Part shown: in pieces, positions 1,014 to 57,785 of the stretch | Layout of the letters: every line of letters begins with the position of its first letter | Position numbering within the stretch: the first letter of the stretch is position 1 | Source of the DNA: a virus | Lineage: Duplodnaviria > Caudoviricetes | Direction: 5' to 3' (one strand) | IMG/VR virus record: IMGVR_UViG_3300020469_000008 | Coordinates: 128,001 to 192,000 of that record | DNA length: 64,000 bases | The notes under the pieces: generated by a model | Seen by the model: only the letters and a program-made list of their open reading frames with translations | What the model was told of the DNA's origin: nothing | Database searches by the model: none | Translations under genes and position numbers: made by a program

Positions 1014-2051
1014 ATGAGAATGACTAAAAGACAGCTTAGTGAAGTAATTACAGATTACTTGTTAAGTGAGGCAGAATTTGGATCATTTAGGGGTAGTGTA
1101 GATATAGAATTCTGTGATTTAAGCGGATTACCTAAAATCTTCACAGCTATTTTTGAACCAATAAGAGATCGAGACAGTTCAAAGCTTAAGCTCGCTTTAA
1201 GTGAAGAGCTTGAAAAAGCTGAGGCTAGCCGTGATAAGCGAAGAATTGAAAAATTAAGTGCACGAATTAGCGAATTAGAAGATGAAAATTATTGGTCAGG
1301 TTCAGATGCATTTGCCGGTATATTTGGGTCTGCAACTTTCATGGGCTTAACAAAAATCCTAGGACCAGGTTTGACAATGATGACAATGATGACAAAGGTA
1401 GATTGTGATCACATCATAAATCTTGTTAATATATTCACAGTTAACATTTTAGCACCGTTGTTAGGAATTGAAGGTGCACAACTTCAAGAACTTGAAGACG
1501 AAATTAAAAGAAACAAAGGTGAGAGAGTTACATCGAGTGAAGGTGAGGCGCAAAATCAGTCGAATATGTATTCTGATGATATGCAAGTAAAAATATTCAA
1601 CTCAGTGTCGAATGTTTTTAAGGATAACAATCTTTTAAATTATGAAAAACGTGACGAAGCAAGAGTGTCTGGTAAATTACGTTTAAATGATTATGACGGC
1701 AAAATAACTGATATGCACTTAGATTTCTTTGAGCTATTTTCTCCTGTTGAATATTTAAAATTTTTAGAGGATCCTAGAGAGGATATTCCAGAATCAGCAA
1801 AAGATAATTTTCTTAATGCCATAAAAATTTTAGAAGATCAAGGCCATCGAGATTTTGGATCTTTTATAAATGCATTTGTATTAGCCACACCAGGAACAAG
1901 AACAGATAGTGCTGTGGCAAAAATTCTTAAAGCAGCAAATTTAAAAAATTATTTTAAGGAACCTAAAGATGCAATAAAGTTTGTGAAAACAACATTTAAC
2001 ACAATGTACAAAGAATTTGAATTTGACGGATTCCAATTATTCGGTTTATAA
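1014..2051 (+). CDS. Hypothetical protein with MKITRRQL-type leader
   Basis: N-terminus MRMTKRQLSEVITDYLLSE. Confidence 0.7.
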   Translation: MRMTKRQLSEVITDYLLSEAEFGSFRGSVDIEFCDLSGLPKIFTAIFEPIRDRDSSKLKLALSEELEKAEASRDKRRIEKLSARISELEDENYWSGSDAFAGIFGSATFMGLTKILGPGLTMMTMMTKVDCDHIINLVNIFTVNILAPLLGIEGAQLQELEDEIKRNKGERVTSSEGEAQNQSNMYSDDMQVKIFNSVSNVFKDNNLLNYEKRDEARVSGKLRLNDYDGKITDMHLDFFELFSPVEYLKFLEDPREDIPESAKDNFLNAIKILEDQGHRDFGSFINAFVLATPGTRTDSAVAKILKAANLKNYFKEPKDAIKFVKTTFNTMYKEFEFDGFQLFGL

Positions 2052-6224: not shown

Positions 6225-6247
6225 TTAATAACAACTCGGAGAATCAC

Positions 6248-6586: not shown

Positions 6587-6602
6587 TTTTTTTTAAAAAA
6601 GG

Positions 6603-6631
6603 GTGTAAACTTTGAAAACGGTGTTTATTAT
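6603..6631 (+). promoter_or_regulatory. GTGTAA-class promoter upstream of hsp20
   Basis: GTGTAA, 17 bp, TATTAT. Confidence 0.55.
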
Positions 6632-6692
6632 ATAACTGCTGGCAATTTTAATATGCTAGTTAACAACTTCATGTTTAATAAAGGAGGCTGAT

Positions 6693-7112: not shown

Positions 7113-7128
7113 TTAAAATAATACATTT

Positions 7129-7156
7129 TTGCGCGCAGAGTGTAACCTGCGCGCAA
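7129..7156. terminator. 10-bp GC-rich hairpin between hsp20 and sigma, overlapping the -35 box
   Basis: TTGCGCGCAG-AGTGTAAC-CTGCGCGCAA perfect stem. Confidence 0.6.
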
Positions 7157-7168
7157 TTATAGTATAAT
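7140..7168 (+). promoter_or_regulatory. GTGTAA-class promoter of the sigma factor gene
   Basis: GTGTAA (7140-45), 17 bp, TATAAT (7163-68). Confidence 0.75.
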
Positions 7169-7180
7169 AACAATACAAAC

Positions 7181-7201
7181 TAAACATTAAACATTAAACA
7201 T
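7181..7201 (+). repeat. 7-nt tandem repeat x3 in the sigma 5' UTR
   Basis: TAAACAT TAAACAT TAAACAT directly before the GGAG RBS. Confidence 0.85.
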
Positions 7202-7211
7202 TGGAGAACAT

Positions 7212-7958
7212 ATGAAAACGAACAGTTCACTCGAATTGTACTTTCGAGATATAAAGCGACAGACCAAACTCTTGACAAGAGAACAAGAAGTTGAATTGGC
7301 CAAACGGATCGAAGCAGGTGATATGCGTGCACGACGTATTATGATTGAGTCAAACTTGCGTTTGGCAATATCTATTGCTAAAAAATATGCACAGTATGGC
7401 GGAAGTCTAGAAGATTTAATTCAAGAAAGTAACATTGGTTTAATTAAAGCAGTCGAAAAATTCGATTGGCGTAAAGGCTTTAAGTTTTCAACTTATGCAT
7501 GCTGGTGGATTAAGCAAGCTGTAACGCGCAGCTTAACTTCTAATAGCACACTACTCAAAGTACCTTCTCACACTCTTTCTAATGCTAGAAAAATCTGGGC
7601 CTTAAGACAAGAGTATCAAGAAGAGTTCGGGCACGAACCATCAATTGATGAGATATGTGAAGCTTTAGGGATGACAGAAAAACATGTGCGCAATGCACTA
7701 GACGCTGTCAAAACAAAAAGTATTGCATCTATCGATCAGAAAATAGGTGATGAAGGTAATAGAACATTAGGTGATGTCATTCCTGATAATGATTCACCAA
7801 ATATCGAACAAATACTTGACAACGAATTAATCCGTGCAAGAATTGTTAAGGCGCTTACTTCTTTGACTAAGCGCGAAGAGTTGGTTCTTCGCATGCGTTT
7901 TGGTATATCAGAAGTAAGTGAAGATGATGAAAATGTTTACGAAGTAGAACTAGCATAA
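7212..7958 (+). CDS. RpoD-like sigma70 factor lacking region 4.2
   Basis: LLTREQEVELAKRI, ESNLRLAISIAKKY, EDLIQESNIGLIKAVEKFDWRKGFKFSTYACWWIKQAVTR, REELVLRMRFG then stop. Confidence 0.92.
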   Translation: MKTNSSLELYFRDIKRQTKLLTREQEVELAKRIEAGDMRARRIMIESNLRLAISIAKKYAQYGGSLEDLIQESNIGLIKAVEKFDWRKGFKFSTYACWWIKQAVTRSLTSNSTLLKVPSHTLSNARKIWALRQEYQEEFGHEPSIDEICEALGMTEKHVRNALDAVKTKSIASIDQKIGDEGNRTLGDVIPDNDSPNIEQILDNELIRARIVKALTSLTKREELVLRMRFGISEVSEDDENVYEVELA

Positions 7959-17921: not shown

Positions 17922-18478
17922 TGATTATTCTTAGTGAAGAAGATAAAAAACAATTAATTGATATTGGTCAATCACGTAATGTTTATCTAGAAGGTAATAT
18001 TATAAAATTAATCGATCCTCAAGCTGACGAATTGTTTAAAAAGTATCTTGTTGACGCTAAAATTCAAGATCGAGAGAACAGAAAAAAGCGTCTCGAAGTT
18101 ACTAAGCAAGTTCAAATACAAAATAGAGAGTTAATTGCTTCACAGGAAGAAAACGAAAAACTTCTTTTAGACTTAAAAGAAGCTGTTAAAAAAGCAGATG
18201 AAGCAAAAGATGCAGCATTAAATGATTTAGACCTGATGCAAAAGAAAACCCAGTTTGAACTAATCGGAAAAATTGTTCAGGTTGCATTGTGGATCATTAT
18301 TGGCGTTGGAGTTTTCACGACAGTTTTGTTTATGTTTTCAATGTATACAGGTATAGACACTACTTTGATTGGTAATACTTGGAGTAACCTGTTTGGAATA
18401 TTACTCACAAATTCTTTTAGTATTATTGGTACAATAATGGGTGTAAAGTATGCTAGTGAAAGTAATAAAGAAAACTAG
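17921..18478 (+). CDS. Coiled-coil protein with two C-terminal TM helices
   Basis: TAATG-coupled to the regulator; heptad region followed by two hydrophobic segments. Confidence 0.7.
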   Translation: MIILSEEDKKQLIDIGQSRNVYLEGNIIKLIDPQADELFKKYLVDAKIQDRENRKKRLEVTKQVQIQNRELIASQEENEKLLLDLKEAVKKADEAKDAALNDLDLMQKKTQFELIGKIVQVALWIIIGVGVFTTVLFMFSMYTGIDTTLIGNTWSNLFGILLTNSFSIIGTIMGVKYASESNKEN

Positions 18479-18777
18479 TTTTCCCACCACACATTTGCAA
18501 CGTCCCAATCAATCATTTCACTTAGCCAATTAGGAAATGAACCTGTACAATCAAAATCAAACCACTCGCCCTTGCAAGATTGTTTATAGGGCTTCAAAGA
18601 TTTAAGCAGGGATCTTTCTAAATCACCCCTACCATTTACTATGGTGAGCAACTTAAGTTTATATGGAGATCCAGTTTGAAGCTGTCGCAACCTATTTTGG
18701 GGATTTTTACTCATACCAATTTTAATTGCGCCCGTGACGTCAGATTGTATTACATAAAGGTGTTTATTCATATACAT
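18475..18777 (-). CDS. GIY-YIG nuclease (T5orf172/MUG113-like)
   Basis: LYVIQ...AIKIGMSKNPQNRLRQLQTGSP, GEWF. Confidence 0.85.
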   Translation of the reverse strand: MYMNKHLYVIQSDVTGAIKIGMSKNPQNRLRQLQTGSPYKLKLLTIVNGRGDLERSLLKSLKPYKQSCKGEWFDFDCTGSFPNWLSEMIDWDVANVWWEN

Positions 18778-18838
18778 AATTTTATATAGTTATTTACTCT
18801 AATAAACAATAATTATAAAATATGTGCGAGGTACATTG

Positions 18839-19825
18839 ATGGAAATAAGTAGGCTACAACTAAGCAATTTAATTTATGAAGCACTAGAAGGTAAAGAAGG
18901 TGAATGGTCGTACAACATAGTTTCAATAGGTGATTACAGTGACAAAGAAAATTTAAAACCTAAGGACATTAAAGACGTCCAGGTTAGAGTTGCTTCTGGT
19001 CCTAGTAACGTAGGTTATGAGTTTCCTTTGTCGGAAGTTGAAACTAATGAAGGTACAAAAGCATACGAGCAGCACCCGTTAATTTTGCAAGTAATCGAAG
19101 CGATTAAGAATAATGAAAATTTAGATAATGTAATAGTAAAAACTGCGAACCCAATTGTTGATGCATCAGGTGAAGTTTTCTTAACGGGCGAAGGATTTAT
19201 GGCAATTTCTCCTAAAAAACTTAGGGAAGCTCATCCAGCAATATCTAATGATTTGGCAGTTTATGCTTTGAGTAGCTTTAGACAACATCACAAATCAGGT
19301 AAAATTAAAAGCAAACATAAGATGATGATTGTGGATTACACAATTCCAGGTAATAAAGTTAGACTGTGGTGTTTGCAAGTGAAAAACGGAAAAGTTAAAG
19401 CTTCCATCGCAACTCCTGTAGCTCATGGTAAAGGAAACAGAGCAAAAGGAAGCGATTCTGTAACTAAATTTAGTAATTCACCCGGTACCAATGCTGCTTC
19501 TGTAGGGGCTTTTGTTACTACGAAAACTTATTACTCTAAAGCTGGATCACCTGAAAAATATCCAGGCGGTCGTCCATACAAAGGAATATCGTTAAGAATA
19601 GATGGGCTTGACAAGACAAACAACAACGATCTAGCTCGTGGCATCGTAATACACGGTGCATGGTATAGAGAAAAAGGTAAGACAGGCAGGAGTTGGGGTT
19701 GTCTAGCGACTTCAGCTGAAACAAATAAAAAAATTATTGACTTTGCAGGAATTGGTACTTTTGGATATAAATTTGGCGGAAGAACAAACGCTGCAAGCAT
19801 TAATACTAACTGGTTAAGCGTATAG
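18839..19825 (+). CDS. Murein L,D-transpeptidase (YkuD_2-like) with leader motif
   Basis: IVDYT.P...RLW, VAHGKG, FSNSPGTNAASVG, LRIDGLD..N, IVIHGAWY, GRSWGC; N-terminus MEISRLQLSNLIYE. Confidence 0.85.
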   Translation: MEISRLQLSNLIYEALEGKEGEWSYNIVSIGDYSDKENLKPKDIKDVQVRVASGPSNVGYEFPLSEVETNEGTKAYEQHPLILQVIEAIKNNENLDNVIVKTANPIVDASGEVFLTGEGFMAISPKKLREAHPAISNDLAVYALSSFRQHHKSGKIKSKHKMMIVDYTIPGNKVRLWCLQVKNGKVKASIATPVAHGKGNRAKGSDSVTKFSNSPGTNAASVGAFVTTKTYYSKAGSPEKYPGGRPYKGISLRIDGLDKTNNNDLARGIVIHGAWYREKGKTGRSWGCLATSAETNKKIIDFAGIGTFGYKFGGRTNAASINTNWLSV

Positions 19826-19833
19826 GTCATCAT

Positions 19834-20403
19834 ATGAGATTAACAAGAAAGAATTTAAGAAAATTAATTTTGCGTGAATTTAAGTTGACCGGTCAAGCGT
19901 TTGATGATTTAATCGGTAACACAGGCAGCGGTGAACCTCCTCCAACTAAACCACCTAAAAGAGGCGGTGGCTCCGGAGAAGGTTGGCCGACTTCGGTTGT
20001 TGAGAGGTTGATCAATGCTGAGTATGGTAGTTTAAGCAAGTGGACACAGGATCCTCGAAATAGTCGTGCTGCTGTTTATGATAATTCACAAATCAAACTT
20101 TATGCTAAAGCTGTTGATTCTCAAAATTCACTTGTTTGTACTTTAGTCAGAGGAAACAAAGTTTTAGATCGATATGTGTTTATTAGAAAATCAGGTGGCG
20201 CTAGCGGAATGTTGCCTCGCATGATGGAGATTACAAATAATATATGTGATATGACAGGTAGTGAAGCAGAAAGGAAAGCTAGCGAATATAAAGAGTATAA
20301 CAAGAGTTTGATAGACTTTATGACTCGAAGCGGACCGCCCTACAAGGGTGATGATTGTGCACCGCCCGAGGATGATGGAACTGGTTGGATTAGGAGATAT
20401 TAA
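19834..20403 (+). CDS. Leader-motif protein (Pro/Gly-linker subfamily)
   Basis: MRLTRKNLRKLILRE...PPPTKPPKRGGGSG. Confidence 0.75.
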   Translation: MRLTRKNLRKLILREFKLTGQAFDDLIGNTGSGEPPPTKPPKRGGGSGEGWPTSVVERLINAEYGSLSKWTQDPRNSRAAVYDNSQIKLYAKAVDSQNSLVCTLVRGNKVLDRYVFIRKSGGASGMLPRMMEITNNICDMTGSEAERKASEYKEYNKSLIDFMTRSGPPYKGDDCAPPEDDGTGWIRRY

Positions 20404-21035
20404 TGAAAATAACAAGAAAACAATTGCGTCAACTGATGCTTAGAGAATTTAAATTTACCGGCAATAACTTTGTTGATGACCTAGATTTGTTAGGTGGAGG
20501 ACCTCCTCCTGCAGAGTCTCAAGAACCTAGTGGCGGTGGCGGTGGCGGAAGAATTCATCAACTGGTGCGTATTGATTTTGAACCGGGTAATGAGTTTAAT
20601 CCTAGTTCATATAATAAAGTAGCTATTGATGTTAGCGCCGGTTCGACTTTTTCTAAGATGCGTGAGATTTATAATTTATTTTCTGATAACACAAAGAACA
20701 AGCTTTACCAGATGTTTCCAGGTGGTATCGATCCAGAAGACGGATATGTAGATGCCGATGGAGACTTTATCTTTGATCAAGATAAAATATGGGATTTTCG
20801 AAGCGAGTATTATAATTTGTTAAACACTATGGATGATGCGCTTCCAGAAGGGAGTGATTACGAGTATTTTACTATTTTTCATCCAAGTTACGCTAGTCAT
20901 GGTAGAAATTTTGCTGGTGCTAATGAGTTGGAAGCTATAGACTTATATCGAAGGGTGACGGGTTATACACCTGATGAGGACTTGCTTGGCGAGTATGAGA
21001 TTATTATGCACAGCGCTAGTTCGTTGTTTGGGTGA
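20403..21035 (+). CDS. Leader-motif protein (Pro/Gly-linker subfamily)
   Basis: MKITRKQLRQLMLRE...GGGPPP...SGGGGGG. Confidence 0.75.
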   Translation: MKITRKQLRQLMLREFKFTGNNFVDDLDLLGGGPPPAESQEPSGGGGGGRIHQLVRIDFEPGNEFNPSSYNKVAIDVSAGSTFSKMREIYNLFSDNTKNKLYQMFPGGIDPEDGYVDADGDFIFDQDKIWDFRSEYYNLLNTMDDALPEGSDYEYFTIFHPSYASHGRNFAGANELEAIDLYRRVTGYTPDEDLLGEYEIIMHSASSLFG

Positions 21036-21040
21036 AATAA

Positions 21041-21589
21041 ATGAAAATTACAAAAAAACAATTAAGACAATTAATAAGCGAAGCCGTTTCTCAAAATCAT
21101 CGACGACAGGAAGCGTTGTATGCTGTAGTATATACGTCTGGTTATCTTGATGCGTCTGATACAGCGATTGGTAATATCCTTAGAAATTACAAGGAGCTTT
21201 CCGGTCGTACTGATAGTTGGGTGCCTCTCGATGAAGCATTCGGCAACTTGAATGCTGTTATGATTGGTGGCGCTTCTGCGATAAAGAGAGAAAACCCGGG
21301 ACTCGATCTTACAGAGGAATTAGTTATTCTTCGAGAGGGCCAGGCTGCTGGCCAGGCAGATTTTCGAGAGAGCCCGTATAAATACATTGAACAAGTAGCT
21401 ACTCTTGTTAACGTGCAAACGCCAGTAGGTATGAGTGCTGCTGAAGGTTTAGGAATCTTTGGGGTTGCAGGAGGAGGTGTTTTACTTAGAGACACTGCCA
21501 TTGGGGACGTACAACTCTTGCTTAATTTAATGAATAATGATAATATTTTAAGTTGGTTAGATGAGTTAGAAAGCATGCAGTCCATCTAA
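21041..21589 (+). CDS. Leader-motif protein
   Basis: MKITKKQLRQLISE. Confidence 0.75.
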   Translation: MKITKKQLRQLISEAVSQNHRRQEALYAVVYTSGYLDASDTAIGNILRNYKELSGRTDSWVPLDEAFGNLNAVMIGGASAIKRENPGLDLTEELVILREGQAAGQADFRESPYKYIEQVATLVNVQTPVGMSAAEGLGIFGVAGGGVLLRDTAIGDVQLLLNLMNNDNILSWLDELESMQSI

Positions 21590-21605
21590 TACATGAGGTT
21601 AAAAA

Positions 21606-22373
21606 ATGAAAATAACAAGAAGACAATTAAGAAAACTTATAAACGAAGTCATGGTAGGCTATCCTGATGAGCGTGCACCATTCGATGCAACTGCTGCATT
21701 AAAAAGCGCGAAAAAGAAAATCTCAAAAGAGCCAGCGCTATCAGACATGTTTGATGACGATGACGATTACGACCAAAAAAGACAAGCTTATGCCTTAGGA
21801 TCAATGACTACAGATCTCACAGATGATGAAGAACTTGCTGCAGATATGGCGTCTGATGTCATTAGGGATACTGTTGACCCGGATGAATACGAAACATCCT
21901 ACAATTACAACCCTTTTGATGCGGTTCCTGGTTCTGAAGAGCTAGATCCGGATCAGCGTTTTTTCCATGAGGTAGACGATTATCAACCAATTGAGCAAGC
22001 GCTTCAAGGAACTGTCAAAGACATTATACCTGAATTGCAGATATCGAGGTTTGAAAAAAATAAAAGAGCATCTCAGGACAAGACAACTTATTACACACCG
22101 GATAAAAAATTCCAAATTTTAATGTCATTTCGTCCTGCTTACGAAGACATAGAAGATGGTGTTGATTACAGTACACCACCACAATATACAGTTGAAGTTA
22201 GAAAGTATATGCCTAAAGTCCAAAGATATGAGATGTATTCACCTGGTCCTGGTAGCTTTGACAAGTTTCGTGATGGAACTAAAGCCTTCTTTTCCACTAC
22301 CTCGACGACTGCTAGATTTGTACAGGTGTTAGATCACCTAAGAAGGTATCTTGAGGAGTTAAAATCATTATGA
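21606..22373 (+). CDS. Leader-motif protein
   Basis: MKITRRQLRKLINE; GAGG RBS. Confidence 0.75.
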   Translation: MKITRRQLRKLINEVMVGYPDERAPFDATAALKSAKKKISKEPALSDMFDDDDDYDQKRQAYALGSMTTDLTDDEELAADMASDVIRDTVDPDEYETSYNYNPFDAVPGSEELDPDQRFFHEVDDYQPIEQALQGTVKDIIPELQISRFEKNKRASQDKTTYYTPDKKFQILMSFRPAYEDIEDGVDYSTPPQYTVEVRKYMPKVQRYEMYSPGPGSFDKFRDGTKAFFSTTSTTARFVQVLDHLRRYLEELKSL

Positions 22374-23023
22374 AAATAACAAGAAGACAGTTAAGAAAAC
22401 TCATCAATGAAATGAGAATTGACACTAAAAATCCATTGGACTTTGTACCTGACGGGCCAATGAAGGACAATGTAATGGATCTAATAAACGATCCGGATAA
22501 AGACGTACAGCGCCAGGGGTATGAGCTAGCTTCTTTAATGCAAGAACCAATAGAGCTTGATGCTGGTGGTGGACAAAAGTACGAAGATATTGGCTACGAA
22601 GGCGAAGATTATTTAAAAGACCTCCGCGCGGGACTATTAAATCGTGAGCAAGTGATCAGTATTTTAGATAATCTATTCGACAAAAATAAAGACTTTGAAG
22701 TACTTTCCTTTCGAGAGGGAGCCGCCCCTTCTGGAAAATTTTCGGGTCAGTACAGGGAAGTATTAAGTGATGACTTTAGTAATCGTGCTGAACGCATAAA
22801 CATTAGTGTAGGTAGTCCGGGTAACAAGCCCGATTATGAAACAGGCGAATTTAGATCAGGGAAATCATTAACTTGGATAAATATTGAACAAGGACTTTAT
22901 TATGACTTTGTTGCAGCAATACGTGTTTCAGATCATGACGATGACAGCAAAGGTCACAAATTAAGAGACGTAATTAGCGCATACATGCTTGCAGTCAATA
23001 TCGTGAGTAAGCATTTAAAATGA
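22370..23023 (+). CDS. Leader-motif protein
   Basis: MKITRRQLRKLINE; ATGA overlap. Confidence 0.75.
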   Translation: MKITRRQLRKLINEMRIDTKNPLDFVPDGPMKDNVMDLINDPDKDVQRQGYELASLMQEPIELDAGGGQKYEDIGYEGEDYLKDLRAGLLNREQVISILDNLFDKNKDFEVLSFREGAAPSGKFSGQYREVLSDDFSNRAERINISVGSPGNKPDYETGEFRSGKSLTWINIEQGLYYDFVAAIRVSDHDDDSKGHKLRDVISAYMLAVNIVSKHLK

Positions 23024-23073
23024 AAATAACAAGAATATATAGAAATCCAATGGCAGCAATTCGGAGTTTTTAA
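23020..23073 (+). pseudogene. 17-codon deletion relic of a leader-motif gene
   Basis: MKITRIYRNPMAAIRSF*: leader start fused to a sequence resembling the C-terminus of 25477-25956 (IYRNPMSAILNF*). Confidence 0.75.
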
Positions 23074-23777
23074 TGAAAATAACAAGAAGACAATTAAGAA
23101 AATTAATAAGTGAGGCAATCAAACGTGTTCCTGTATTTGAACCTGTGTCGCGTGAAGAAGTTCGCAGTAAGCTAGCTCAAAAACGCGCACAGAGCCGAAG
23201 TGCTGCAGACATCGATCCAGCTATGTTAAGTAAGATTGGCGAGATGGAAGCCTTGGGAGACGCTGAATCTAACCAGGCGCGGTCCTTTGCGCAAGCACTA
23301 GGGTCGATGGCACCGGCAGAAGACGTCACCGATCAACAAGAAGATGAGTATGCTGATAAGATGCTCACGCAGCATATGGGATATTATCTTGGGCCAGGCG
23401 TGAAAAAAACAGAAACGCGACTTCTAAACAAAATGGCAAAAAGATTAAAAAGCTATAGGAAGGCTGGAAGCCCTATTGAGGTTTGGATCTCTGAAGGAGT
23501 TAACTACCCTAGAACTGCAATAATTCCACGTGAACCTGAAAGAGAAACAGTAGATAGTTTATTAAAAGCTTTAAAAAATCAAGTCTATTATATTCATAGT
23601 TATGGTTATGGCGATGCCCGAGATTACCTTGAACCCTTTTTTGATAATCAAATAGATGAATATGAAGAATTCTTGGACCAATTAAAGATTGGTGGTAGTC
23701 AACCGCCTGATTACTATGTTTTTGCAGCGTTGGTTTATTTTGTTGGTAAAGATAAAATCGTTATTAAAAGTATGTGA
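23073..23777 (+). CDS. Leader-motif protein
   Basis: MKITRRQLRKLISE; TAATG overlap. Confidence 0.75.
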   Translation: MKITRRQLRKLISEAIKRVPVFEPVSREEVRSKLAQKRAQSRSAADIDPAMLSKIGEMEALGDAESNQARSFAQALGSMAPAEDVTDQQEDEYADKMLTQHMGYYLGPGVKKTETRLLNKMAKRLKSYRKAGSPIEVWISEGVNYPRTAIIPREPERETVDSLLKALKNQVYYIHSYGYGDARDYLEPFFDNQIDEYEEFLDQLKIGGSQPPDYYVFAALVYFVGKDKIVIKSM

Positions 23778-23824
23778 AACTAAGAATGAAAATAATAACT
23801 CTTCTCGATATAATATATAGGTAA

Positions 23825-24161
23825 GGGCCCGTAATGGTTTCGACGGGGTAGAATCAAGGGGAGAGTGCAAGTAGGGAAGATACGCCCTTAACAGTTCAAA
23901 CATAATAGTTGCAAACAATAACAACTTTTACGACGTAGCTTTAGCTGCATAATCGTGGTGGTCGTCTCAAACCATCTAACCAAGAGAGGCTTTAGCAGTT
24001 GGAACTGCCGAGAAATAAAATGACAACAGTCCTCACTCGGTCACGGAGAGGCGAACAATACAGTGACTATCCTGTTAATCGGAGAAATGATTAGATAAGC
24101 TTGTGAATGACTCAAACTAAGACTATTGCGGACAGGGGTTCGACTCCCCTCGGGTCCACCA
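23825..24161 (+). ncRNA. ssrA: tmRNA (one-piece), tag (A)ANNNNFYDVALAA
   Basis: 5' GGGCCCG pairs with 3' CGGGTCC-A-CCA including the G3:U pair; TTCGAC after the 5' stem; T-arm GGTTCGACTCC; tag frame 23911-23952; TATAAT at 23809-14. Confidence 0.95.
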
Positions 24162-24175
24162 CTTTAGGATGTATT

Positions 24176-24436
24176 ATGGCAGACAAAAATGATAAATGGG
24201 AAGATAACGTAGGTGGGTTTAGAATAATTAACGGTAAGAAAGTTTCTTTCTATGTTGATCGAGAGTGTATACTTTGTTCAGTGTGTGAAGAGGTTGCACC
24301 TAACAATTTTAAAATGAATGACAATGATGATCATGATATATGTTACAAACAACCAGAAAACGAAGAGGAACTCGAAGAATGTTATGAGGCCTTAGATTCG
24401 TGTCCGGTAGAGGCTATTGGCGATGATGACATTTAA
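24176..24436 (+). CDS. Ferredoxin (single Fe-S cluster)
   Basis: CILCSVC...CPVEAI; start moved to ATG 24176 because the track start lies inside tmRNA. Confidence 0.9.
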   Translation: MADKNDKWEDNVGGFRIINGKKVSFYVDRECILCSVCEEVAPNNFKMNDNDDHDICYKQPENEEELEECYEALDSCPVEAIGDDDI

Positions 24437-24452
24437 TTTTTTCTTCACAGAT

Positions 24453-24496
24453 AACTCCTGCTAAATTTGATATATATTTATAGCAGGAGTTTTTTT
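24453..24496 (+). terminator. 11-bp hairpin plus T tract that also contains the downstream RBS
   Basis: AACTCCTGCTA-17 nt loop-TAGCAGGAGTT-TTTTT. Confidence 0.7.
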
Positions 24497-24928
24497 GTGT
24501 CTGGAATTGAATTCAAACAAGGTGATCAAGTTATTGTTGATAATTTTCTTGAACAAGGTGATAGGTTTAAACTTATAGCAAGTAATGTTTGTCAGGTTCT
24601 GGCAGTGGGTAAGTATGATTTAATAGTTAAGTCACATGAATCTTCTTACTATCCTCGAATATTTACAGTATCTAAGTTGGTGTGCAGAAGAATCTCAAAA
24701 AGCAAGTCAAAAGTCCAGGTTGACGTGACACTTCCAAAAATCAACGATTTAGTTGCAGGAATCACATCTGACTTGGGGAATAAAAATCAAGAAATGCATG
24801 TTGGTGTGTTAGAAGAAATTAGACACAACAACACTTCTTCAAAAACTGCAGTAGTTAGGGAAGGAAATAAACGCACAAACATATCCTTATCTAGTTTAAT
24901 TGTTTTGGAGCAAAAGAATGAAAAGTAA
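24497..24928 (+). CDS. Hypothetical protein with tandem SH3-like segments
   Basis: Start moved to GTG 24497, 7 nt after AGGAG; FKQGDQVIV and PKINDLVAG segments. Confidence 0.6.
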   Translation: MSGIEFKQGDQVIVDNFLEQGDRFKLIASNVCQVLAVGKYDLIVKSHESSYYPRIFTVSKLVCRRISKSKSKVQVDVTLPKINDLVAGITSDLGNKNQEMHVGVLEEIRHNNTSSKTAVVREGNKRTNISLSSLIVLEQKNEK

Positions 24929-25475
24929 AAAACTTTTATCAGAAGGTTTAAAGTACCACGTAGAAAATAATGTACCGCTTAATGAAAGCATTTACAGGCC
25001 TGGTTCTAAATCTTTTTTCGCTATGATCAACGAGGCAAGAACTGCATATGAAAATGGAGATCTCGCGTTAAACGAAGATGATTTCGATTTAATTAAAACA
25101 GATATAGGTCAATTGGCTGAGTACAAAGGAATGGTTGTTGCTTTAGACTTTCCAATATTAGAGATGTATACTCTTGACGAAGCAGAGTATCAAGGTAGAA
25201 AAGTTAAGCTTAACAAACCAAAAAGAAACAGTGGTAAAGGGGGTGGAAAATACGTTGTATACGTTAAGAACCCAAAAACCAAAAAGGTTAAGAAGCTGAC
25301 TTTTGGTTCTCGTGAAATGAGCGTTAAGCTTAAGGACCCTAAGCGCAGAAAATCTTTTGTTGCACGGCATAAATGCAAAGAGACAAAAGACAAGATGTCA
25401 AAAAGATATTGGGCATGTCGCATTGGCAGATATCCCCACCTTTTTGGTGGAAAGACTAGGTATACGTGGTGGTAA
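24918..25475 (+). CDS. Basic phage hypothetical protein
   Basis: MKSKKLLSE; KVKLNKP...YVVYVKNPKT..VKKLTFG...RRKSFVARHKC; ATG 24918 after GGAG. Confidence 0.65.
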   Translation: MKSKKLLSEGLKYHVENNVPLNESIYRPGSKSFFAMINEARTAYENGDLALNEDDFDLIKTDIGQLAEYKGMVVALDFPILEMYTLDEAEYQGRKVKLNKPKRNSGKGGGKYVVYVKNPKTKKVKKLTFGSREMSVKLKDPKRRKSFVARHKCKETKDKMSKRYWACRIGRYPHLFGGKTRYTWW

Positions 25476-25476
25476 C

Positions 25477-25956
25477 ATGAAAATAACAAGAAGACGATTA
25501 AGGAAGATGCTATTAAAAGAGTTTAGAGAAGATGGACGCTATGATGACTTTAACTTCGGCGCCGGCGTAGGCGGTGGCCAATTACCTCCAGTTAAGCCGC
25601 CTAGAAGAGGCGGCGGTGGAGGTGGTGGCGAGGAACCTAGAGACTACCGTGGTAGAAGTAATGATCCTTGCGGTTTTGGTAATCCGAAGGGTGACTACTA
25701 TTATGACTTAGTATTTAATTCTTTTGGTGTTTGGCTTGAATCTAATATGAGTGAAGGAAGTGCTAACGAGTATGATAACTATTTAGATTACTTAAAAAGT
25801 ATTGATTCTGAATTTACTATGGATTTACTTTCTGATAGATATATGGAGTTTTTTGAATTGCTTATGACAGCAATTGCTGAGTATGCATGTAAAAATAACA
25901 TTAGAGATATTGAATCCATATATAGAAACCCGATGTCCGCAATTTTAAATTTTTAA
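25477..25956 (+). CDS. Leader-motif protein (Pro/Gly-linker subfamily)
   Basis: Start moved to 25477: MKITRRRLRKMLLKE...LPPVKPPRRGGGGGGG. Confidence 0.75.
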   Translation: MKITRRRLRKMLLKEFREDGRYDDFNFGAGVGGGQLPPVKPPRRGGGGGGGEEPRDYRGRSNDPCGFGNPKGDYYYDLVFNSFGVWLESNMSEGSANEYDNYLDYLKSIDSEFTMDLLSDRYMEFFELLMTAIAEYACKNNIRDIESIYRNPMSAILNF

Positions 25957-26003
25957 AAATATTTGTAAATTTACAAAAACCATCTTTACTATTTAGGTGT
26001 CCC

Positions 26004-26453
26004 ATGAATAATAGAACAAACATAACTGCATCCGGAATTATAGTATTTAGAAATAAAAATAATCACCCAGAGATATTAGGATTAGTAGCGCTACCTAAAC
26101 ATAGAAAAAGAAGTAAAGGTAAGTATGACGTACCTAAAGGTAGAATTGATGATGGTGAAACACCAATCCAAGCTGCATACCGGGAATGTTATGAAGAGTG
26201 TGGTTTAGAACCTAAAATTATAAACATAAATGATCCTGTAATACATGGACCATTATGTTTATGGCTTGGGGAAGTGAATCCTGATGATGATGTTGAATTA
26301 ACTGCAAATCCTTATACCGGTGAATATGAGCATGAAGGCTACGAGTGGTTGACAGTAAAAAACATGAAAAGTAATTGTCTGAATTATCTTAGGCCTTTTA
26401 TAACAGAAACAGAAAAAGATATATGGGAACATTTTAAAATCTGGAGAAAATGA
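26004..26453 (+). CDS. NUDIX hydrolase
   Basis: PKGRIDDGETPIQAAYRECYEECGL Nudix box. Confidence 0.92.
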   Translation: MNNRTNITASGIIVFRNKNNHPEILGLVALPKHRKRSKGKYDVPKGRIDDGETPIQAAYRECYEECGLEPKIININDPVIHGPLCLWLGEVNPDDDVELTANPYTGEYEHEGYEWLTVKNMKSNCLNYLRPFITETEKDIWEHFKIWRK

Positions 26454-27295
26454 TGCATGTGACAGGTGACACGCCTTTGATACCTATTGGAAACGGTTTA
26501 ATTTGGGCAAAATTAGAAACGCATAACAGAACCGGTTCAGTTAAAGATAGAATGATAAACTACATTATGAATATTGCATTGCAATATAACAATGTTAAAC
26601 CGGGTGTAACTACCATAGTAGAAGCCACTAGTGGTAATACAGGAATATCATTAGCGTCATATGCATCATCAATCGACTGTCCCTGTAAGATTATTATGCC
26701 ACGAAATATGTCTGCACAAAGAAAAGATATGATGCGAGCATTTGGTGCAGAAATAATTGAAACTCCCGACAACGATTTCTTAGGTGCTATTGACATAAGG
26801 AATAGTATGATCGAAGAAACAGATGTATTTTCACCTATGCAATTCTCGAACCCGTTAAATATTGACTGTCACTACAATATCACAGCACCTGAAATATATG
26901 AACAATGTGTTGATTTGATGTTAGACTGGCGAACTTTTGTTCACGGATCTGGTACGGGTGGAACAATGATGGGAGTTAAAAAATATATCGATTTCGCCGG
27001 CTTAAATATAAAATGTGTTCTGACTCAACCAAAAGAAGACAATCTTACACACGGCATACAGGGGATTAACGATGGAGCTGACTTTTTACTGGACCGGTCA
27101 CTGATGGATGCAACGATATCTGTAAAAACAGAAGATGCTATAAAACGGATGAAACAGTTTTGGCAAGAGACGGGAATACTGGTAGGTATTAGTAGTGGTG
27201 CTAATATTTTAGCTGCTGAAAATTACTTAAAAACATTCAATCCGTCTGGTATAATTATAACAGTGCTGTGCGATCGCGGCGAGAGATATTTATGA
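26450..27295 (+). CDS. cysK: Cysteine synthase (PLP-dependent, CysK/CysM family)
   Basis: GDTPLI, TGSVKDR, EATSGNTG, GSGTGGT, HGIQGI, GISSGAN, LCDRGERY. Confidence 0.93.
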   Translation: MMHVTGDTPLIPIGNGLIWAKLETHNRTGSVKDRMINYIMNIALQYNNVKPGVTTIVEATSGNTGISLASYASSIDCPCKIIMPRNMSAQRKDMMRAFGAEIIETPDNDFLGAIDIRNSMIEETDVFSPMQFSNPLNIDCHYNITAPEIYEQCVDLMLDWRTFVHGSGTGGTMMGVKKYIDFAGLNIKCVLTQPKEDNLTHGIQGINDGADFLLDRSLMDATISVKTEDAIKRMKQFWQETGILVGISSGANILAAENYLKTFNPSGIIITVLCDRGERYL

Positions 27296-27942
27296 AACTA
27301 ACAAGAAGACAATTAAGAAAACTAATAAACGAAACAATCTTTGCAGGTGGGCCAACTGTTGACAGCCCTGACAAAAGCGTAGGGGTGACAGTTGACATGG
27401 GAAGACAAAACCCGCCGATATATCGACCCCAGAGTGACAGAGACGAAGAAATTAGAAGAACAGCAGATCCACGAATTGTCGATCTGTTAGATTCCGATTC
27501 TGAAGCGGACAAGCAAATGGCGAGGACATTAGCTAGCTCTATTGACGGGAAACCAGAGGCGTATGAGACTTTAACTCCGGAGGAGCGCGAAGCACAGGGT
27601 TTGTTTGATGAGTTTTACCCTGAAGATCCGTTTGACGAGCCACACGACATGTCAGGTGATATGGAAAGATCGTACGCTCCTGAGATACAACAGATAAGAA
27701 ATGCTATGAAGAAAAGAATCGAGGATGCTATGGACAAAGGTGCTAGTAGTTTTGACGATTTATATTCAGCTGCTTATACTACACCAGGTTATGATAACCT
27801 GAGAAGACATTTGATGAATTTACCTTTAAACCAAAGGCGGAACGCCAAAGGTGTTTATGGCGACAAACCCGAAGATGAATTAATGAACATGCCCGGTCAA
27901 TTAGTTGACATGTATCAGAAACATGATAGCGATCATTATTAA
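27292..27942 (+). CDS. Leader-motif protein
   Basis: Start moved to 27292: MKLTRRQLRKLINE. Confidence 0.75.
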   Translation: MKLTRRQLRKLINETIFAGGPTVDSPDKSVGVTVDMGRQNPPIYRPQSDRDEEIRRTADPRIVDLLDSDSEADKQMARTLASSIDGKPEAYETLTPEEREAQGLFDEFYPEDPFDEPHDMSGDMERSYAPEIQQIRNAMKKRIEDAMDKGASSFDDLYSAAYTTPGYDNLRRHLMNLPLNQRRNAKGVYGDKPEDELMNMPGQLVDMYQKHDSDHY

Positions 27943-27952
27943 AGAGGCTGAA

Positions 27953-28414
27953 GTGAAACTAACAAGAAGACAACTGATCGATCTAATAAACGAAGCAATA
28001 GATCCTGTTAGAGTAAAGACAGTAAAACCTGAGGATTATAATCCTCCCCAAGCTTTCAGCTCTGTCAGTTTAGGAAAGCCAAGGGAGCTTGAGACACCAG
28101 CCAAACGCGTTGGAAACTTTTTTGCCACGCGACTGCCTTACAAACCCCCGCGAGGTTATTCATCATTAAATAAAAGAAAATATTTTTACATGGTTCTTCC
28201 TGACGGTGAGGCTATTAATATTGATCATAGAGATATTAGGATTAACAATCAAAAATTAGTAAATGCATATTTAACGTTATTAAATCAGAAAGTTACACCT
28301 TTACCGATAGAAGATATACATCAACCCACAATTGAAGACGAACAAAATATTCAAAAAATGCGTTCCCAAATTGAGTTGGTTGTTAATGAATTTAAGGCGA
28401 CACATGATATTTAG
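27953..28414 (+). CDS. Leader-motif protein
   Basis: GTG start 27953 after GAGG: (M)KLTRRQLIDLINE. Confidence 0.75.
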   Translation: MKLTRRQLIDLINEAIDPVRVKTVKPEDYNPPQAFSSVSLGKPRELETPAKRVGNFFATRLPYKPPRGYSSLNKRKYFYMVLPDGEAINIDHRDIRINNQKLVNAYLTLLNQKVTPLPIEDIHQPTIEDEQNIQKMRSQIELVVNEFKATHDI

Positions 28415-28471
28415 ATGTTTGTATGAGTAGAGTAACAGTAATGATACGTGTAATAGAGGAAAAAGATACTT

Positions 28472-29128
28472 ATGAAATTAACAAGAAATAAATTAAGAAG
28501 ACTTTTAAAAGAAACAGTGAATGATGCATTTGTAGTTTCAGAAATACAATCTTTTGTAGACAACAACCAATATCTAAAAGGCACCGTAGTAAACGAGCAA
28601 GACTTAATCCATGACACTCGTTATGTTTTATTTGCACCAGAAAGTTCTTTAGGACATATCAAGGACAGACACATGAATGTTGACGCCCCTGGATCAACAA
28701 TGTATCCAGAAGTAGATTTAAGACAAACGATATCAGCAGTCCTCCAAACTCCTGAAACATCATCGCCTGAAGATTTTATGGTAAAGTGGGAAGGAATAGT
28801 TTCACCGGTAGGACCAATTGGCGACATGGGTGTTGCAGCAGCACCAATAGAAACTGTAATGATGATGCAAGATTATCAAATGCCTGGTGGTAGAAATGAA
28901 ATGGTTAAAGTGGCTCAAGGTCAAAGAATGTCGACAGACGAAATTACACTAGTCACTGCAAAATTAGGTCAGTTAACTGACGGAAGGTTGGTTATAAGTT
29001 TAGTAACAATGTATCCTGGCGGTTCAACTGTTGACAGTATACCGATACCTTTTGATAGAAACCAGTTTGCAGCATCAGGATTATATTTTCCTTTACCTGC
29101 GACTAGTCCAATATTAGCAGCTATTTAA
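28472..29128 (+). CDS. Leader-motif protein
   Basis: MKLTRNKLRRLLKE. Confidence 0.75.
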   Translation: MKLTRNKLRRLLKETVNDAFVVSEIQSFVDNNQYLKGTVVNEQDLIHDTRYVLFAPESSLGHIKDRHMNVDAPGSTMYPEVDLRQTISAVLQTPETSSPEDFMVKWEGIVSPVGPIGDMGVAAAPIETVMMMQDYQMPGGRNEMVKVAQGQRMSTDEITLVTAKLGQLTDGRLVISLVTMYPGGSTVDSIPIPFDRNQFAASGLYFPLPATSPILAAI

Positions 29129-29139
29129 GGAAATTACAT

Positions 29140-29643
29140 ATGAAAATAACTAGAAGACAGTTGAGAAAGTTAATCCAAGAATCATTGTTACGTGAAGGCG
29201 ACGTTAAAAAAATGAAGTCAACATACGTTCACAATGATGATGCAGAAGCTATAGCTAAAAGTCTGCTTGATACAGACAAGAAAAAACCAACATTTAAGTT
29301 GCACTTAGATAAACACACAGCATACAACGCGTATATCAAACCAACCGGTCAAATATCTGGTAAGTATCATTTTGAACTAATCGATCCAAAGTCTGGTATA
29401 AAATTGGACGGTGGGGGTCACATTGAGTTTCCTGGTTTGAGTGACAAAGAAGGCACTCACCTTGGTGGTGAAATTGAATTAGCAAAACATTTAAAACAAA
29501 GTAATGTCGACGTCTTTTTAAAAGGAGACGCTAGTACACATTTAGGTTTGGATCACGGTAATGTTCACATTTCTGCACCTGACACAGCAATTACATTTGG
29601 TGTTAAGGGAAAAATTGGTAAATCTAAAAAGAAGCATGTATAA
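29140..29643 (+). CDS. Leader-motif protein
   Basis: MKITRRQLRKLIQE. Confidence 0.75.
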   Translation: MKITRRQLRKLIQESLLREGDVKKMKSTYVHNDDAEAIAKSLLDTDKKKPTFKLHLDKHTAYNAYIKPTGQISGKYHFELIDPKSGIKLDGGGHIEFPGLSDKEGTHLGGEIELAKHLKQSNVDVFLKGDASTHLGLDHGNVHISAPDTAITFGVKGKIGKSKKKHV

Positions 29644-29661: not shown

Positions 29662-30642
29662 ATGAGTAGAGTAACAGTAATGATAGGTGCTATGAAGCCA
29701 ATGACAGCAGGTCACTATCGTCTTATAACAGAGGCTGTTGCGGATTCACAGTGCCCGGAAGGAGAAACTCCTGCAAACGAGACATATGTTTTAATATCGA
29801 TGCAAGATAGAATCAAGAAGAATCAATTTCCAGTACGTGGCGAAACGGCGTTGTCTGCACTTCGTGATATCTATATGGATCCTGCTTCTGGTTTGTTTGA
29901 GTTTGGTGCTGACAAGTATATTAAAATGATATTTTGTCATTCAAAAAGCTTTGCAGAGAAGAATCCAGATAGATTAATAGAAATGCGAGAAATTGTAGAA
30001 GGAATTAAAGAAGCATTGTCAGCGCGAGGCTTAGCAAATATAACAGCTGAAGTTGAACAGGTAAGGAGCGGACCGCCTGACGTGTTGATGGGTCTAGCTG
30101 AGTCCCGTCCAAATGATAAATTTATTTTGTATACCGGTGATGATGACCTTAAAAAATATCAATATTTTAAACGTTACACGCAAAACGTAGGATTTGCTGG
30201 GTTTGAAAGATTTGAGGGCGGTATGTCTGGGACTGAGGTGCGCTCATTATTCCAAACTGATTCAGACGTTGCTGATTTTGATGCAGAAAGATTTGCTTCT
30301 GCATTCCCACAAGGTGTCGATCCTTCGCTCGTCCGACAGAAATATAGAGCAGATGCTGGTCAAGATCCGTTAAAAGAAGTTAAACGCGCAGACAAAGGCA
30401 CGCCAGAATATTCAACTTATCTTGAAAAAATGATGGACGAGTTAAAATACATTAAATCAGGCTATGATTCTAGAAAAAAAGCAAGTGCAAGATATAGAAA
30501 AGAAGCTAGCAAAATACAAGACGCATATTCTGAATTAAGAAAACTTAAAAGAAAAAACGATAAGCTATTACATTCAGATGAAAAAGAATCGTTTGATAGG
30601 AAAGCATTAAAAGAGTGGTTTAAGAAAACATACAAAAAATAG
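29662..30642 (+). CDS. HxGH-type nucleotidyltransferase-like protein
   Basis: VMIGAMKPMTAGHY degenerate HIGH motif; MSGTEVR resembles the KMSKS-equivalent. Confidence 0.55.
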   Translation: MSRVTVMIGAMKPMTAGHYRLITEAVADSQCPEGETPANETYVLISMQDRIKKNQFPVRGETALSALRDIYMDPASGLFEFGADKYIKMIFCHSKSFAEKNPDRLIEMREIVEGIKEALSARGLANITAEVEQVRSGPPDVLMGLAESRPNDKFILYTGDDDLKKYQYFKRYTQNVGFAGFERFEGGMSGTEVRSLFQTDSDVADFDAERFASAFPQGVDPSLVRQKYRADAGQDPLKEVKRADKGTPEYSTYLEKMMDELKYIKSGYDSRKKASARYRKEASKIQDAYSELRKLKRKNDKLLHSDEKESFDRKALKEWFKKTYKK

Positions 30643-36276: not shown

Positions 36277-39018
36277 ATGAAAAAAATAAGAATTACAAGA
36301 GATCATCTAAGAAAACGTGTTAGAAAAATGCTACTAGAAGCGCAATATACGACGCAGCTAAGCGCTCCTGACCAGCTTCATGCACCAACACAAAAGCAGT
36401 ATGCAAAAAAAGTTTTCGAATTGATTGATAATAACGATATATATAAAATTGTTGGTTCAGTCGCGAGAAATTCTAATTCAAAACAATATGTTTATCTGGA
36501 AGGCGGCGCGCAACCGCACTATATCGTTAACGGCGATCCGGATATCATGCTCGGAGAAGTAGCAAAGGGTGGAGATACAGGAACAACTGGGAATGTAGGG
36601 GAATATCTGACAGGTGAAGTTTGTTGTCTAGATGGCATCAAATTAGCGGGTGACGTAGAACATGATAAATATTCTAATTTAAACTTAGAGACGAGACAGG
36701 CAGGTGGCGTTAGGATTGCAAACATAGCGGGTAAACCATCAGGAGGGTTTAAGGGTGCTGATGTATGGCTTGTAAAGTCAGGCAAAGATCGCAGATTTGA
36801 TGAGGTACCTCTGACCGGAGATCCTGGAAATCTGACGCTAGATTTTTCAGACTACGGTACTTTTGTGTCTGCAAAAGCATCAAGGATCAACTCAAAAGAA
36901 GGTAATATATCTACACAAAAGCCTTCCTTAAGTGCTACTGACCAAGAAGATGTCGCCAATTTAATTCTTTTCTTCTGGTTAAGTCACAATGCAACAGCTA
37001 ATGCTATTGCCGCTCGATTGGTTCCCACAACAGGAATGCGGATGCGCAAGATAAAAAACATTATGACCCAGGCTGAAGCTGGCCTCGAGGCACTAGTACT
37101 GAATCCTAAACTTTATTCGAATATTGATTTAGATAGAGATAGGATTGTTAACAAGGCAGACCAATTCAAGGGTTACACTGGAGCAGGAAACGCTGCAGTC
37201 AAAATATGCCGGGAATTAGGCATTAAAACTATAAAGATGCGATTTGATGCAATAAATATATGTGGTATTGCAACATGTGCTGCTAGCGATTTAATAAAGC
37301 CTGATTTTAACAATCCAATTGCAAAACAAGTTGGTTACTCTGTCGTAGTTCAATCAAAAGGCACAAACTCGACAATAACCTTGACAGTTCCAACGACCGG
37401 TACTGATTTTTATTACGCAGATGCTGTGGGTATGGCCAGTGAAACATACAGTAAAAATTTAGCTGCACTTCACACAACAGATTTTAAACACGATCCGGAT
37501 AAAATTATTGACGAAATATTTTACGCTGACATAAAAGTAACGACTGGAGCTTTAGGCGCTCCAGCTGCTACAACAGGTAGATCTCTTGAAGGTATTCCTG
37601 GTATGGCGCCTGCCGGTACTTCAGGCGGTGCAAATTCTGATGCTGCGATCGAAATAGCAAAAAAATATTACGATAAAGATCAAAATCCAATTTCAGGTGT
37701 CGCCAACCCACTCGGACAGGTTAGTTACGCTCAGTTTCTCCAACGTGCTAGATCACCCATACAAATACAACTATTACAAAGATTGACGTCGTCAATAACG
37801 TTAGCGATGGAAAATTCCCAAAACCCAACCAGTCAAGATAGAATTACAATTCTAACCAGTCAAATATCAGAGGATGTTCAGTCAATTACAAATTATAATA
37901 ATCTAATTGATGTAGAACTCTCAAACCAAAATCCGCATATTGATAATGCAAACTCATCAATCGCTAAACAGGCTCAGACAAGAATTGCTGTACTACGGCC
38001 TTTAAAGAGAAAAGCAAGTAAATTGGAAAAGAAAATGCTAGACGTACAGACTGTTTTAACTAACTCGGGTGCTGCACAGGCTGTGATGGTCAATTTTCTA
38101 GAAAACGTTAATGATAAAATGCTAGATGCAATTGACACCAATGCCGCCGCGTTAACACAAAGAACAGAAACATCACTTTCCCAGGTGCAACAAAACTTAA
38201 CAGCAGCCGCTGCACTATCGAATACGCTACCCACTGAGGTTGTTTCAGCTATTTTTGGTGAATTAGTACAAACTGGAGATGGTCCTGGTTCTAGTATGCT
38301 TGATTACTTGATAAACGTAAAGCGTAGAATTAAATTTTTAATGGGCAAGGTGTCCAGATCTGTTACAAGCCCGTCAACTACCTCACCAAATATTTCACAA
38401 ATTGCAAATCGATCATTACTTGAAATTTTAGCTTTCATGTATCCATCACACCAATTTCCAACCGCGACAGATCTAATAAATCTTAGTAATTCATTGGTCG
38501 CAGCTGATCAGGCCAAGGCACAAAAAATCACAAAAACCATTAATCTTATTGTTACTATATTAAAAGAACAGTATAATATTTTGCTTTTAACAGCTGCTTT
38601 TATGAGACCTCCTCTTTTAAGTTACGCTGAATGGAATAATAACAAAGGTAAAATGGGTCTTTTCTTAGAGAACGTCCAGACTTCTGAAGATAGCCCCGGA
38701 AGTTTGATTGTTATGATCACACAGATTAAAAACTCGATAGATACACTGTTAGAATTTGCAGAGTTATTAGCATCCCCGGTAATTAGCGCTGTTGCAGAAC
38801 CAGACGTTAACAAAAAATTAGACGTAGATTTTTCTGATATTCCTGCCAGAAAAAGTTTTAATGATATTCCTGACACACAATACAAAGAAATGTTACCGAG
38901 TTTTATGGCATCTCAAAGAATGCCGGATGCATCTATGACAGCAGCATCCATGAGTGAAGTTAATCTTTACGAATCGATCCTTTGTGACTTAATGAAAGCT
39001 TCTGCAAAAAACAAATAA
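36277..39018 (+). CDS. Large leader-motif protein
   Basis: 913 aa; MKKIRITRDHLRKRVRKMLLE. Confidence 0.75.
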   Translation: MKKIRITRDHLRKRVRKMLLEAQYTTQLSAPDQLHAPTQKQYAKKVFELIDNNDIYKIVGSVARNSNSKQYVYLEGGAQPHYIVNGDPDIMLGEVAKGGDTGTTGNVGEYLTGEVCCLDGIKLAGDVEHDKYSNLNLETRQAGGVRIANIAGKPSGGFKGADVWLVKSGKDRRFDEVPLTGDPGNLTLDFSDYGTFVSAKASRINSKEGNISTQKPSLSATDQEDVANLILFFWLSHNATANAIAARLVPTTGMRMRKIKNIMTQAEAGLEALVLNPKLYSNIDLDRDRIVNKADQFKGYTGAGNAAVKICRELGIKTIKMRFDAINICGIATCAASDLIKPDFNNPIAKQVGYSVVVQSKGTNSTITLTVPTTGTDFYYADAVGMASETYSKNLAALHTTDFKHDPDKIIDEIFYADIKVTTGALGAPAATTGRSLEGIPGMAPAGTSGGANSDAAIEIAKKYYDKDQNPISGVANPLGQVSYAQFLQRARSPIQIQLLQRLTSSITLAMENSQNPTSQDRITILTSQISEDVQSITNYNNLIDVELSNQNPHIDNANSSIAKQAQTRIAVLRPLKRKASKLEKKMLDVQTVLTNSGAAQAVMVNFLENVNDKMLDAIDTNAAALTQRTETSLSQVQQNLTAAAALSNTLPTEVVSAIFGELVQTGDGPGSSMLDYLINVKRRIKFLMGKVSRSVTSPSTTSPNISQIANRSLLEILAFMYPSHQFPTATDLINLSNSLVAADQAKAQKITKTINLIVTILKEQYNILLLTAAFMRPPLLSYAEWNNNKGKMGLFLENVQTSEDSPGSLIVMITQIKNSIDTLLEFAELLASPVISAVAEPDVNKKLDVDFSDIPARKSFNDIPDTQYKEMLPSFMASQRMPDASMTAASMSEVNLYESILCDLMKASAKNK

Positions 39019-57146: not shown

Positions 57147-57785
57147 ATGACTGTACTATCTCGCGCTTTTATACGTAGAATGATCATTCAAGAAATGAGA
57201 AAGCCTCCGCTCTCAAGTGGTTTAACTTTTGATGATGAAGACTCAACAATCAATATTGATGATGATACTGAGATCGATGATATCCCAAGTTTCATGGGTG
57301 ATGATGAAGATATCGAAGATTTAGCAGCTTTCGACGCGCTTGCCAATGCCCAAGGTATAGATCAAACTTTATATCGGGATAATCCTGATTATAGAGCGAG
57401 TATTGATGATTTTGGATTCGATGATACTGATGATGATGATGACTTTGAGTTTGAGTTTGAGTCAGAAACAGAGGAAGATTCAGAGTCAGAAACAGAATAT
57501 AACCCAGGACGTCAAGTGATGGATATGTCTGGCGATGAAATTAGAAGACATGTAATGAGTCAAGCTGATAAATTGTCACCGGACATGCGTGCAAGAGACA
57601 TGAGGACACGAGCACAAATGCAATACGATGATTTAGTAAAGCAGGGTAGAGAAAGCGAAATGGATGATCCAGAATTTATGGACACTGCAGAATTACCTCC
57701 GTACAATATGCGTAGGAAAAAATTAAAGGAAAGCATCGCTAGAAACATCAGACAATCAATAAGAAAGAGATTACTCTTATTATGA
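57147..57785 (+). CDS. Acidic protein with leader-like helices at both ends
   Basis: MTVLSRAFIRRMIIQE ... LKESIARNIRQSIRKRLLLL. Confidence 0.7.
   Translation: MTVLSRAFIRRMIIQEMRKPPLSSGLTFDDEDSTINIDDDTEIDDIPSFMGDDEDIEDLAAFDALANAQGIDQTLYRDNPDYRASIDDFGFDDTDDDDDFEFEFESETEEDSESETEYNPGRQVMDMSGDEIRRHVMSQADKLSPDMRARDMRTRAQMQYDDLVKQGRESEMDDPEFMDTAELPPYNMRRKKLKESIARNIRQSIRKRLLLL

Follow-up and report, generated by a model that had tools for sequence, protein, structure and literature searches.

A short basic leader on many otherwise unrelated proteins of a marine T4-related jumbo phage: a candidate capsid-targeting propeptide with exchangeable cargo

The DNA under study is a stretch of 64,000 nucleotides (the window), corresponding to bases 128001–192000 of the IMG/VR virus record IMGVR_UViG_3300020469_000008; positions are those of the window unless marked as genome positions. 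Twelve genes at 18839–29643 open with a common leader, MK(I/L)TRRQLRKLIxE, a 14-residue basic amphipathic helix, which probably belongs to a T4-style capsid-targeting propeptide system that is greatly expanded and carries exchangeable cargo. The full record (202,054 bp, 36.6 % GC, ~70 % complete) is that of an uncultured marine T4-related jumbo phage.

By analogy with T4, the leader would act as a capsid (prohead-core) targeting propeptide, by which newly made proteins are docked, during prohead assembly, onto the strongly acidic scaffolding core. Cleavage behind the Glu of (L/I)xE by the gp21-type protease would next free the bodies, which, packaged in this way, would remain inside the head until they are delivered to the host together with the DNA. 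Since tag and body form separate modules, cargo genes keep being gained, lost and swapped in this lineage. The idea of a capsid-targeting tag is already known from T4. For the present leader, a capsid-targeting and cleavage signal, as put forward in the original prediction, fits the gp21-type head protease, the (L/I)xE leader ends, the enrichment of this motif in scaffold and core, the leader-like N-terminus of a core protein and the modularity of the genes.

Leader sequence and extent

A hidden Markov model (HMM) of the leader was scanned over all 3340 candidate N-termini of the record. All twelve starts previously listed at 18839–29643 were confirmed; they are ATG codons, except for GTG at 27953. 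About 32 leader genes were found in the record, roughly one gene in eight, and every occurrence of the motif lay at a start codon. The leaders end in [LIVM]xE in 32 of 32 cases (residues 13–21), even where the position of the Glu shifts by at least one residue; among the other genes, used as the comparison set, [LI]xE was present at residues 10–22 in 24 of 191.

Leader codons are A-rich, and the invariant Leu8 is encoded by six different codons, which shows that selection acts on the peptide. The near-identity of the first ~40 nucleotides in the genes at 21606, 22370, 23073 and 27292 was confirmed, with at most one base difference in the first 30 nucleotides and 36–40 of 45 nucleotides identical; judged from codon usage, it appears to reflect mostly peptide conservation and A-rich codon bias. 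Recent recombination was rejected as a necessary cause of this identity: for nine codons to be identical, the probability is ~0.008 per pair, as estimated by us from a codon table of the leader's own preferences.

A leader with another destination in the infected cell, such as the membrane, DNA or a different assembly, or one that is mainly an A-rich translation-start element, would agree with the basic amphipathic helix and the A-rich codons. Such a role is improbable, however, as the leader has no hydrophobic core of the Sec/Tat kind, the terminal (L/I)xE is kept despite the position shifts, and Leu8 is kept by way of six codons. It is very improbable that, rather than as a sorting signal, the leader serves for recognition by a modifying or partner enzyme, in the way known from ribosomally synthesised and post-translationally modified peptides. 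A small, Cys-rich product among the tagged proteins (genome 52167) is what such a role might imply, but no radical-SAM gene was found in the record (~70 % complete), which speaks against an enzyme-recognition tag; moreover, no conserved partner gene lies beside the arrays, and payloads reach 913 amino acids.

Head module and protease motif statistics

A T4-type head module at genome 38–48 kb comprises a portal protein, a Peptidase_S77 prohead protease, a 490-amino-acid scaffold-like protein and a gp23-type capsid protein. The protease matches Peptidase_S77 (PF03420, E 5e-29) and the solved structure of T4 gp21 (PDB 5jbl, E 5.5e-17). T4 gp21 cuts after L/I-X-E, and N-terminal propeptides of 10–19 residues, known as capsid-targeting sequences (CTS), bring the internal proteins of T4 into the core (PMC9026906, PMC3012670). 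The scaffold has a net charge of −52, the leaders a mean charge of +3.5. Eight of the leader genes are located within ~10 kb downstream of the capsid gene.

The capsid protein was matched by more than 600 IMG/VR contigs, the best 80 of them at 60–77 % identity; by the same protein, the closest cultured phages are Flavobacterium phage immuto, Microcystis phage Mel-JY01 and phage RM378 (35–45 % identity). Metagenomes of marine or viral-fraction origin, from at least ten studies, contain near-identical DNA. To judge by the relatives of the capsid protein and by the YkuD homologues described below, the phage probably infects a marine member of the Bacteroidota. In the capsid protein, Q.L[RK]E is kept at residues 57–61 and followed by a variable linker, near the cut position of T4 gp23. 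The gene after the protease encodes a 178-amino-acid core protein, the N-terminus of which reads M.K[LI][TS][RK]..LK.[IL]VKE, in register with the leader, in 40 of 44 relatives.

Counts of [LI]xE were compared with those in shuffled sequences. The motif was found 26 times in the scaffold (10.0 expected), six times in the core protein (1.5 expected) and 11 times in p279 (5.4 expected); for the rest of the genome, the ratio of observed to expected counts was 1.13. Two leaderless genes in or beside the array, at 24918–25475 and 29662–30642, hold seven (1.4 expected) and eight (2.9 expected) copies, and their products might, by this count, be head-protease substrates too.

Payload bodies

The bodies, taken from residue 19 on, gave no pairwise blastp match at E<0.01. 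The description of the sequences after the leader as largely non-homologous is upheld to this extent, but two groups share further N-terminal residues. Group I (21606, 22370, 23073 and 27292) has a second common motif near residues 50–70; group II (19834, 20403 and 25477) has in common REF[KR]..G and a Gly/Pro linker. As up to ~50–70 further N-terminal residues are shared within these subgroups, the term "mostly unrelated" holds for the C-terminal domains only.

The gene at 18839..19825 (+) combines the leader MEISRLQLSNLIYE with a YkuD_2 L,D-transpeptidase-type domain (PF13645, E 6.9e-32), in which the catalytic His272 and Cys288 are invariant. Its phage homologues carry the leader, and its bacterial homologues a hydrophobic signal peptide in the same place. 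The product of the gene at 28472..29128 (+) was modelled with AlphaFold2 (AF2) at a predicted local distance difference test (pLDDT) score of 94.8; in this model the leader is continuous with a long helix (residues 5–30), and the body has a predicted BECR (RelE/CdiA-CT-like) RNase-toxin-like fold. The best structural matches (VIA) were RNase toxins of the RelE/CdiA-CT/BrnT kind, at modest Z scores of 5–7.1, and a Foldseek search of the model against the PDB gave no match. A motif H.KDRHM..APGS is invariant in five close homologues, and His62, His67 and Arg196 are conserved. The "arsenal of effectors" that had been proposed is backed by these results for two payloads only, a putative YkuD-type cell-wall enzyme, assigned by sequence, and the protein with the modelled RNase-toxin-like fold.

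For the group I gene at 21606..22373 (+), 20 homologues were found (17 aligned; 50–87 % identity), and all of those with a complete N-terminus carry the leader. The AF2 model (mean pLDDT 62) consists of a leader helix, an acidic half of low confidence and a folded C-terminal α/β domain, for which the fold matches were mixed and none was telling. A search of PHROGs gave no match for any leader protein or core protein. Among the leader proteins of the record, Pfam recognised YkuD_2 only, next to sub-threshold matches (GNAT-type and others); among ten long tagged proteins of relatives, one had two weak Pfam matches (Zeta_toxin, barely above the cut-off, and AAA_33, below it). The atlas search with the 23073 protein gave no match.

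The leader might target the prohead while most tagged proteins serve as expendable core or filler material, degraded or charge-balancing, rather than as injected effectors. With many payloads very acidic and the 21606 model partly of low confidence, above all in its N-terminal half, some payloads could be core filler; the T4 core proteins gp67 and gp68, which are cut to peptides (PMC9958956), offer a precedent, and the position of eight leader genes close to the capsid gene would suit such a role. As an account of most tagged proteins, this is nevertheless unlikely: payload families are conserved at 50–87 % identity and have folded domains, the YkuD and RNase-toxin-like payloads look, from sequence and model, like host-acting enzymes, and turnover between relatives resembles an arms race.

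Leader exchange and cassette turnover

Leader and payload are separate modules. The leader of this lineage proved to be widespread in related genomes, heading 364 proteins in 251 payload clusters at 119 IMG/VR loci, with up to 19 at one locus. The payload family of 28472 (106 clusters) is found behind at least four different leaders, according to lineage, and some members are leaderless. The other leaders of this family read MKLI[ML]ENW[RK].[FY]L.E, MKH[IL]K.FEN.E and ..MQKLAG[IL]I.E, and each leader type has [LI]xE near residue 14–17. The first of these forms a second leader class, which heads 95 complete proteins, grouped in 63 payload clusters, on other IMG/VR marine phage contigs (loci L099–L195; protein P0013 on L098:1844-2518); one contig with this class also encodes a T4-type portal and a Peptidase_S77 protease. 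That one payload family can stand behind different leaders hints at the way in which cargo passes from one phage lineage to another. Neither leader string was found in the papers searched, and megablast and tblastn gave no match to the array among GenBank phages.

In the syntenic relative L096, those genes of the array that have no leader (Nudix, PLP enzyme, 29662 gene and helicase) are retained at 53–79 % identity; the four cassettes at 27292–29643 are missing from it, and an extra cassette lies between the Nudix and PLP genes. Metagenome contigs were also found with joints at leader boundaries (22376 to 27299, 23109 to 23073 and 27724 to 23072). Synteny with L096 and these joints together bear out the exchange of whole cassettes, for which the repeated leader DNA was the suggested means.

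The leader could instead be what is conserved at the N-terminus of a single, diverged family of paralogues, where it is required for folding; the further N-terminal residues shared within the two subgroups (up to ~50–70) and the continuation of the 28472 leader into a long helix (residues 5–30) are what such a family would predict. Of all the explanations considered, this is the least probable, as the bodies include unrelated predicted folds (YkuD, BECR-like and the α/β domain), members of the 28472 family carry other leaders or none, and bacterial YkuD homologues have no leader.

On L096, a 478-amino-acid protein (5901-7337) has a second, internal leader copy, KIKRRQLRKLISE, and looks as if two cassettes had been fused in one reading frame. 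LR756508.1 is an uncultured huge phage of 484 kb whose capsid protein is related; six to eight leader-like N-termini were observed in it at 152–194 kb, six of them within ~20 kb of its capsid gene.

Further genes of the array and outlying leaders

The remaining leader genes of the array are all on the plus strand. Group II comprises 19834..20403 (leader, REFK..G and Gly/Pro linker), 20403..21035 and 25477..25956, the last being the sole cassette with a payload orthologue in L096 (63 % identity). Next to 21606..22373, group I contains 22370..23023, 23073..23777 and 27292..27942, which is the first of the four cassettes missing from L096. The body encoded at 21041..21589 belongs to no known family; 27953..28414 is the gene with the GTG start, and the body encoded at 29140..29643 is basic and likewise without a known family. 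A lone minus-strand gene (18475-18777), directly upstream of the array, has a T5orf172/MUG113 (GIY-YIG-like) domain and may be a mobile endonuclease.

Looser forms of the leader had been reported for four further plus-strand genes, and these fared differently in the HMM scan. The variant MKITKRQLKVIVENYLFE at 46633..47208 is a clear member (E 7e-4). That at 1014..2051, MRMTKRQLSEVITDYLLSE, is weak (E 0.16) and belongs to an IIE.YL.E subclass like other members. The 913-amino-acid protein encoded at 36277..39018 has a weak, longer leader-like start (E 3.4); the L096 protein at the corresponding position starts with MRKVKITESKIRKLISNLLNE, and blastp gave no match between it and the 36277 protein. 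The leader-like start MTVLSRAFIRRMIIQE at 57147..57785 is doubtful, being recognised by eye and having no HMM hit.

Expression signals

A motif [AGT]ATA[AG]TTA was found ~30 nucleotides upstream of many starts throughout the genome (e.g., at 18808, 46603 and 57117); a tighter form of it has 16 plus-strand occurrences and none on the minus strand. Its sequence and placement make it a possible promoter element. ATAATTA-type motifs precede the scaffold gene and eight leader genes, and ATAAATA is present upstream of the capsid gene and of genes for other large, probably structural proteins. Contigs from two oligo-dT RNA libraries coincide exactly with ten array genes, of which eight have the leader, and leave the flanks uncovered; this is weak evidence of transcription of the array.

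Discussion

Several observations weigh against a capsid-targeting role. In sequence the T4 CTS is different, and it lacks the strongly basic character of the present leader, which by eye is also longer than the T4 sequence cited in the original prediction; the relation between the two is taken as an analogy, not as demonstrated homology. Many payloads are strongly acidic, in contrast to the basic internal proteins of T4. The [LI]xE motif is short and is also enriched in the body of the capsid protein, and the leader-HMM score is weak for most orthologues of the core protein encoded after the protease. The promoter motifs are ambiguous and do not settle the timing of expression. The leader is absent from the cultured relatives immuto, Mel-JY01 and RM378, so no published virion proteome is applicable.

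If the tag works as in T4, the proteins injected by an abundant, uncultured group of marine phages could be listed from sequence alone; these proteins would likely be anti-defence and takeover factors, and the mechanism would scale from about four cargo proteins to dozens per genome. A wider proposal, somewhat less likely to be right than wrong, is that marine T4-related phages possess a general address-tag and cargo system: each lineage would have its own leader ending in a head-protease site, and hundreds of payload families, toxin-like enzymes included, would cross between lineages by changing leaders. Were this true, reading the tags would give a list of the proteins that these abundant phages inject.

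Comparison with known systems

In the giant phages phiKZ, 201phi2-1 and SPN3US, many head-internal proteins are likewise cleaved after the Glu of a short motif, and paralogues with identical N-termini occur (PMC5694885). Unlike the leader described here, the propeptides of the head and ejection proteins of these phages are mostly longer than 100 residues, the motif is S/A-X-E, and the protease is a distant relative of gp21. Polymorphic toxins (CdiA-CT, Rhs and MafB) also combine a constant delivery module with exchangeable payloads, and the modelled 28472 protein bears a modest resemblance to their RNase toxin domains; in the present phage, however, a 14-residue tag at the N-terminus of the products of separate small genes forms the constant part, and no immunity genes were identified.

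A close parallel is the CTS of the T4 proteins IPI, IPII, IPIII and Alt, which is removed by gp21: CTS and leader are both short N-terminal peptides that end in L/I-X-E and are borne by otherwise unrelated proteins. T4 and this phage have a head protease of the same family, and in both cases related phages differ in their cargo genes (PMC9026906, PMC3012670). The two systems differ in scale, with about 32 tagged genes in this record and four in T4. The use of several lineage-specific leaders on one payload family and the many acidic bodies, known here from the genes, likewise distinguish the present system from that of T4.

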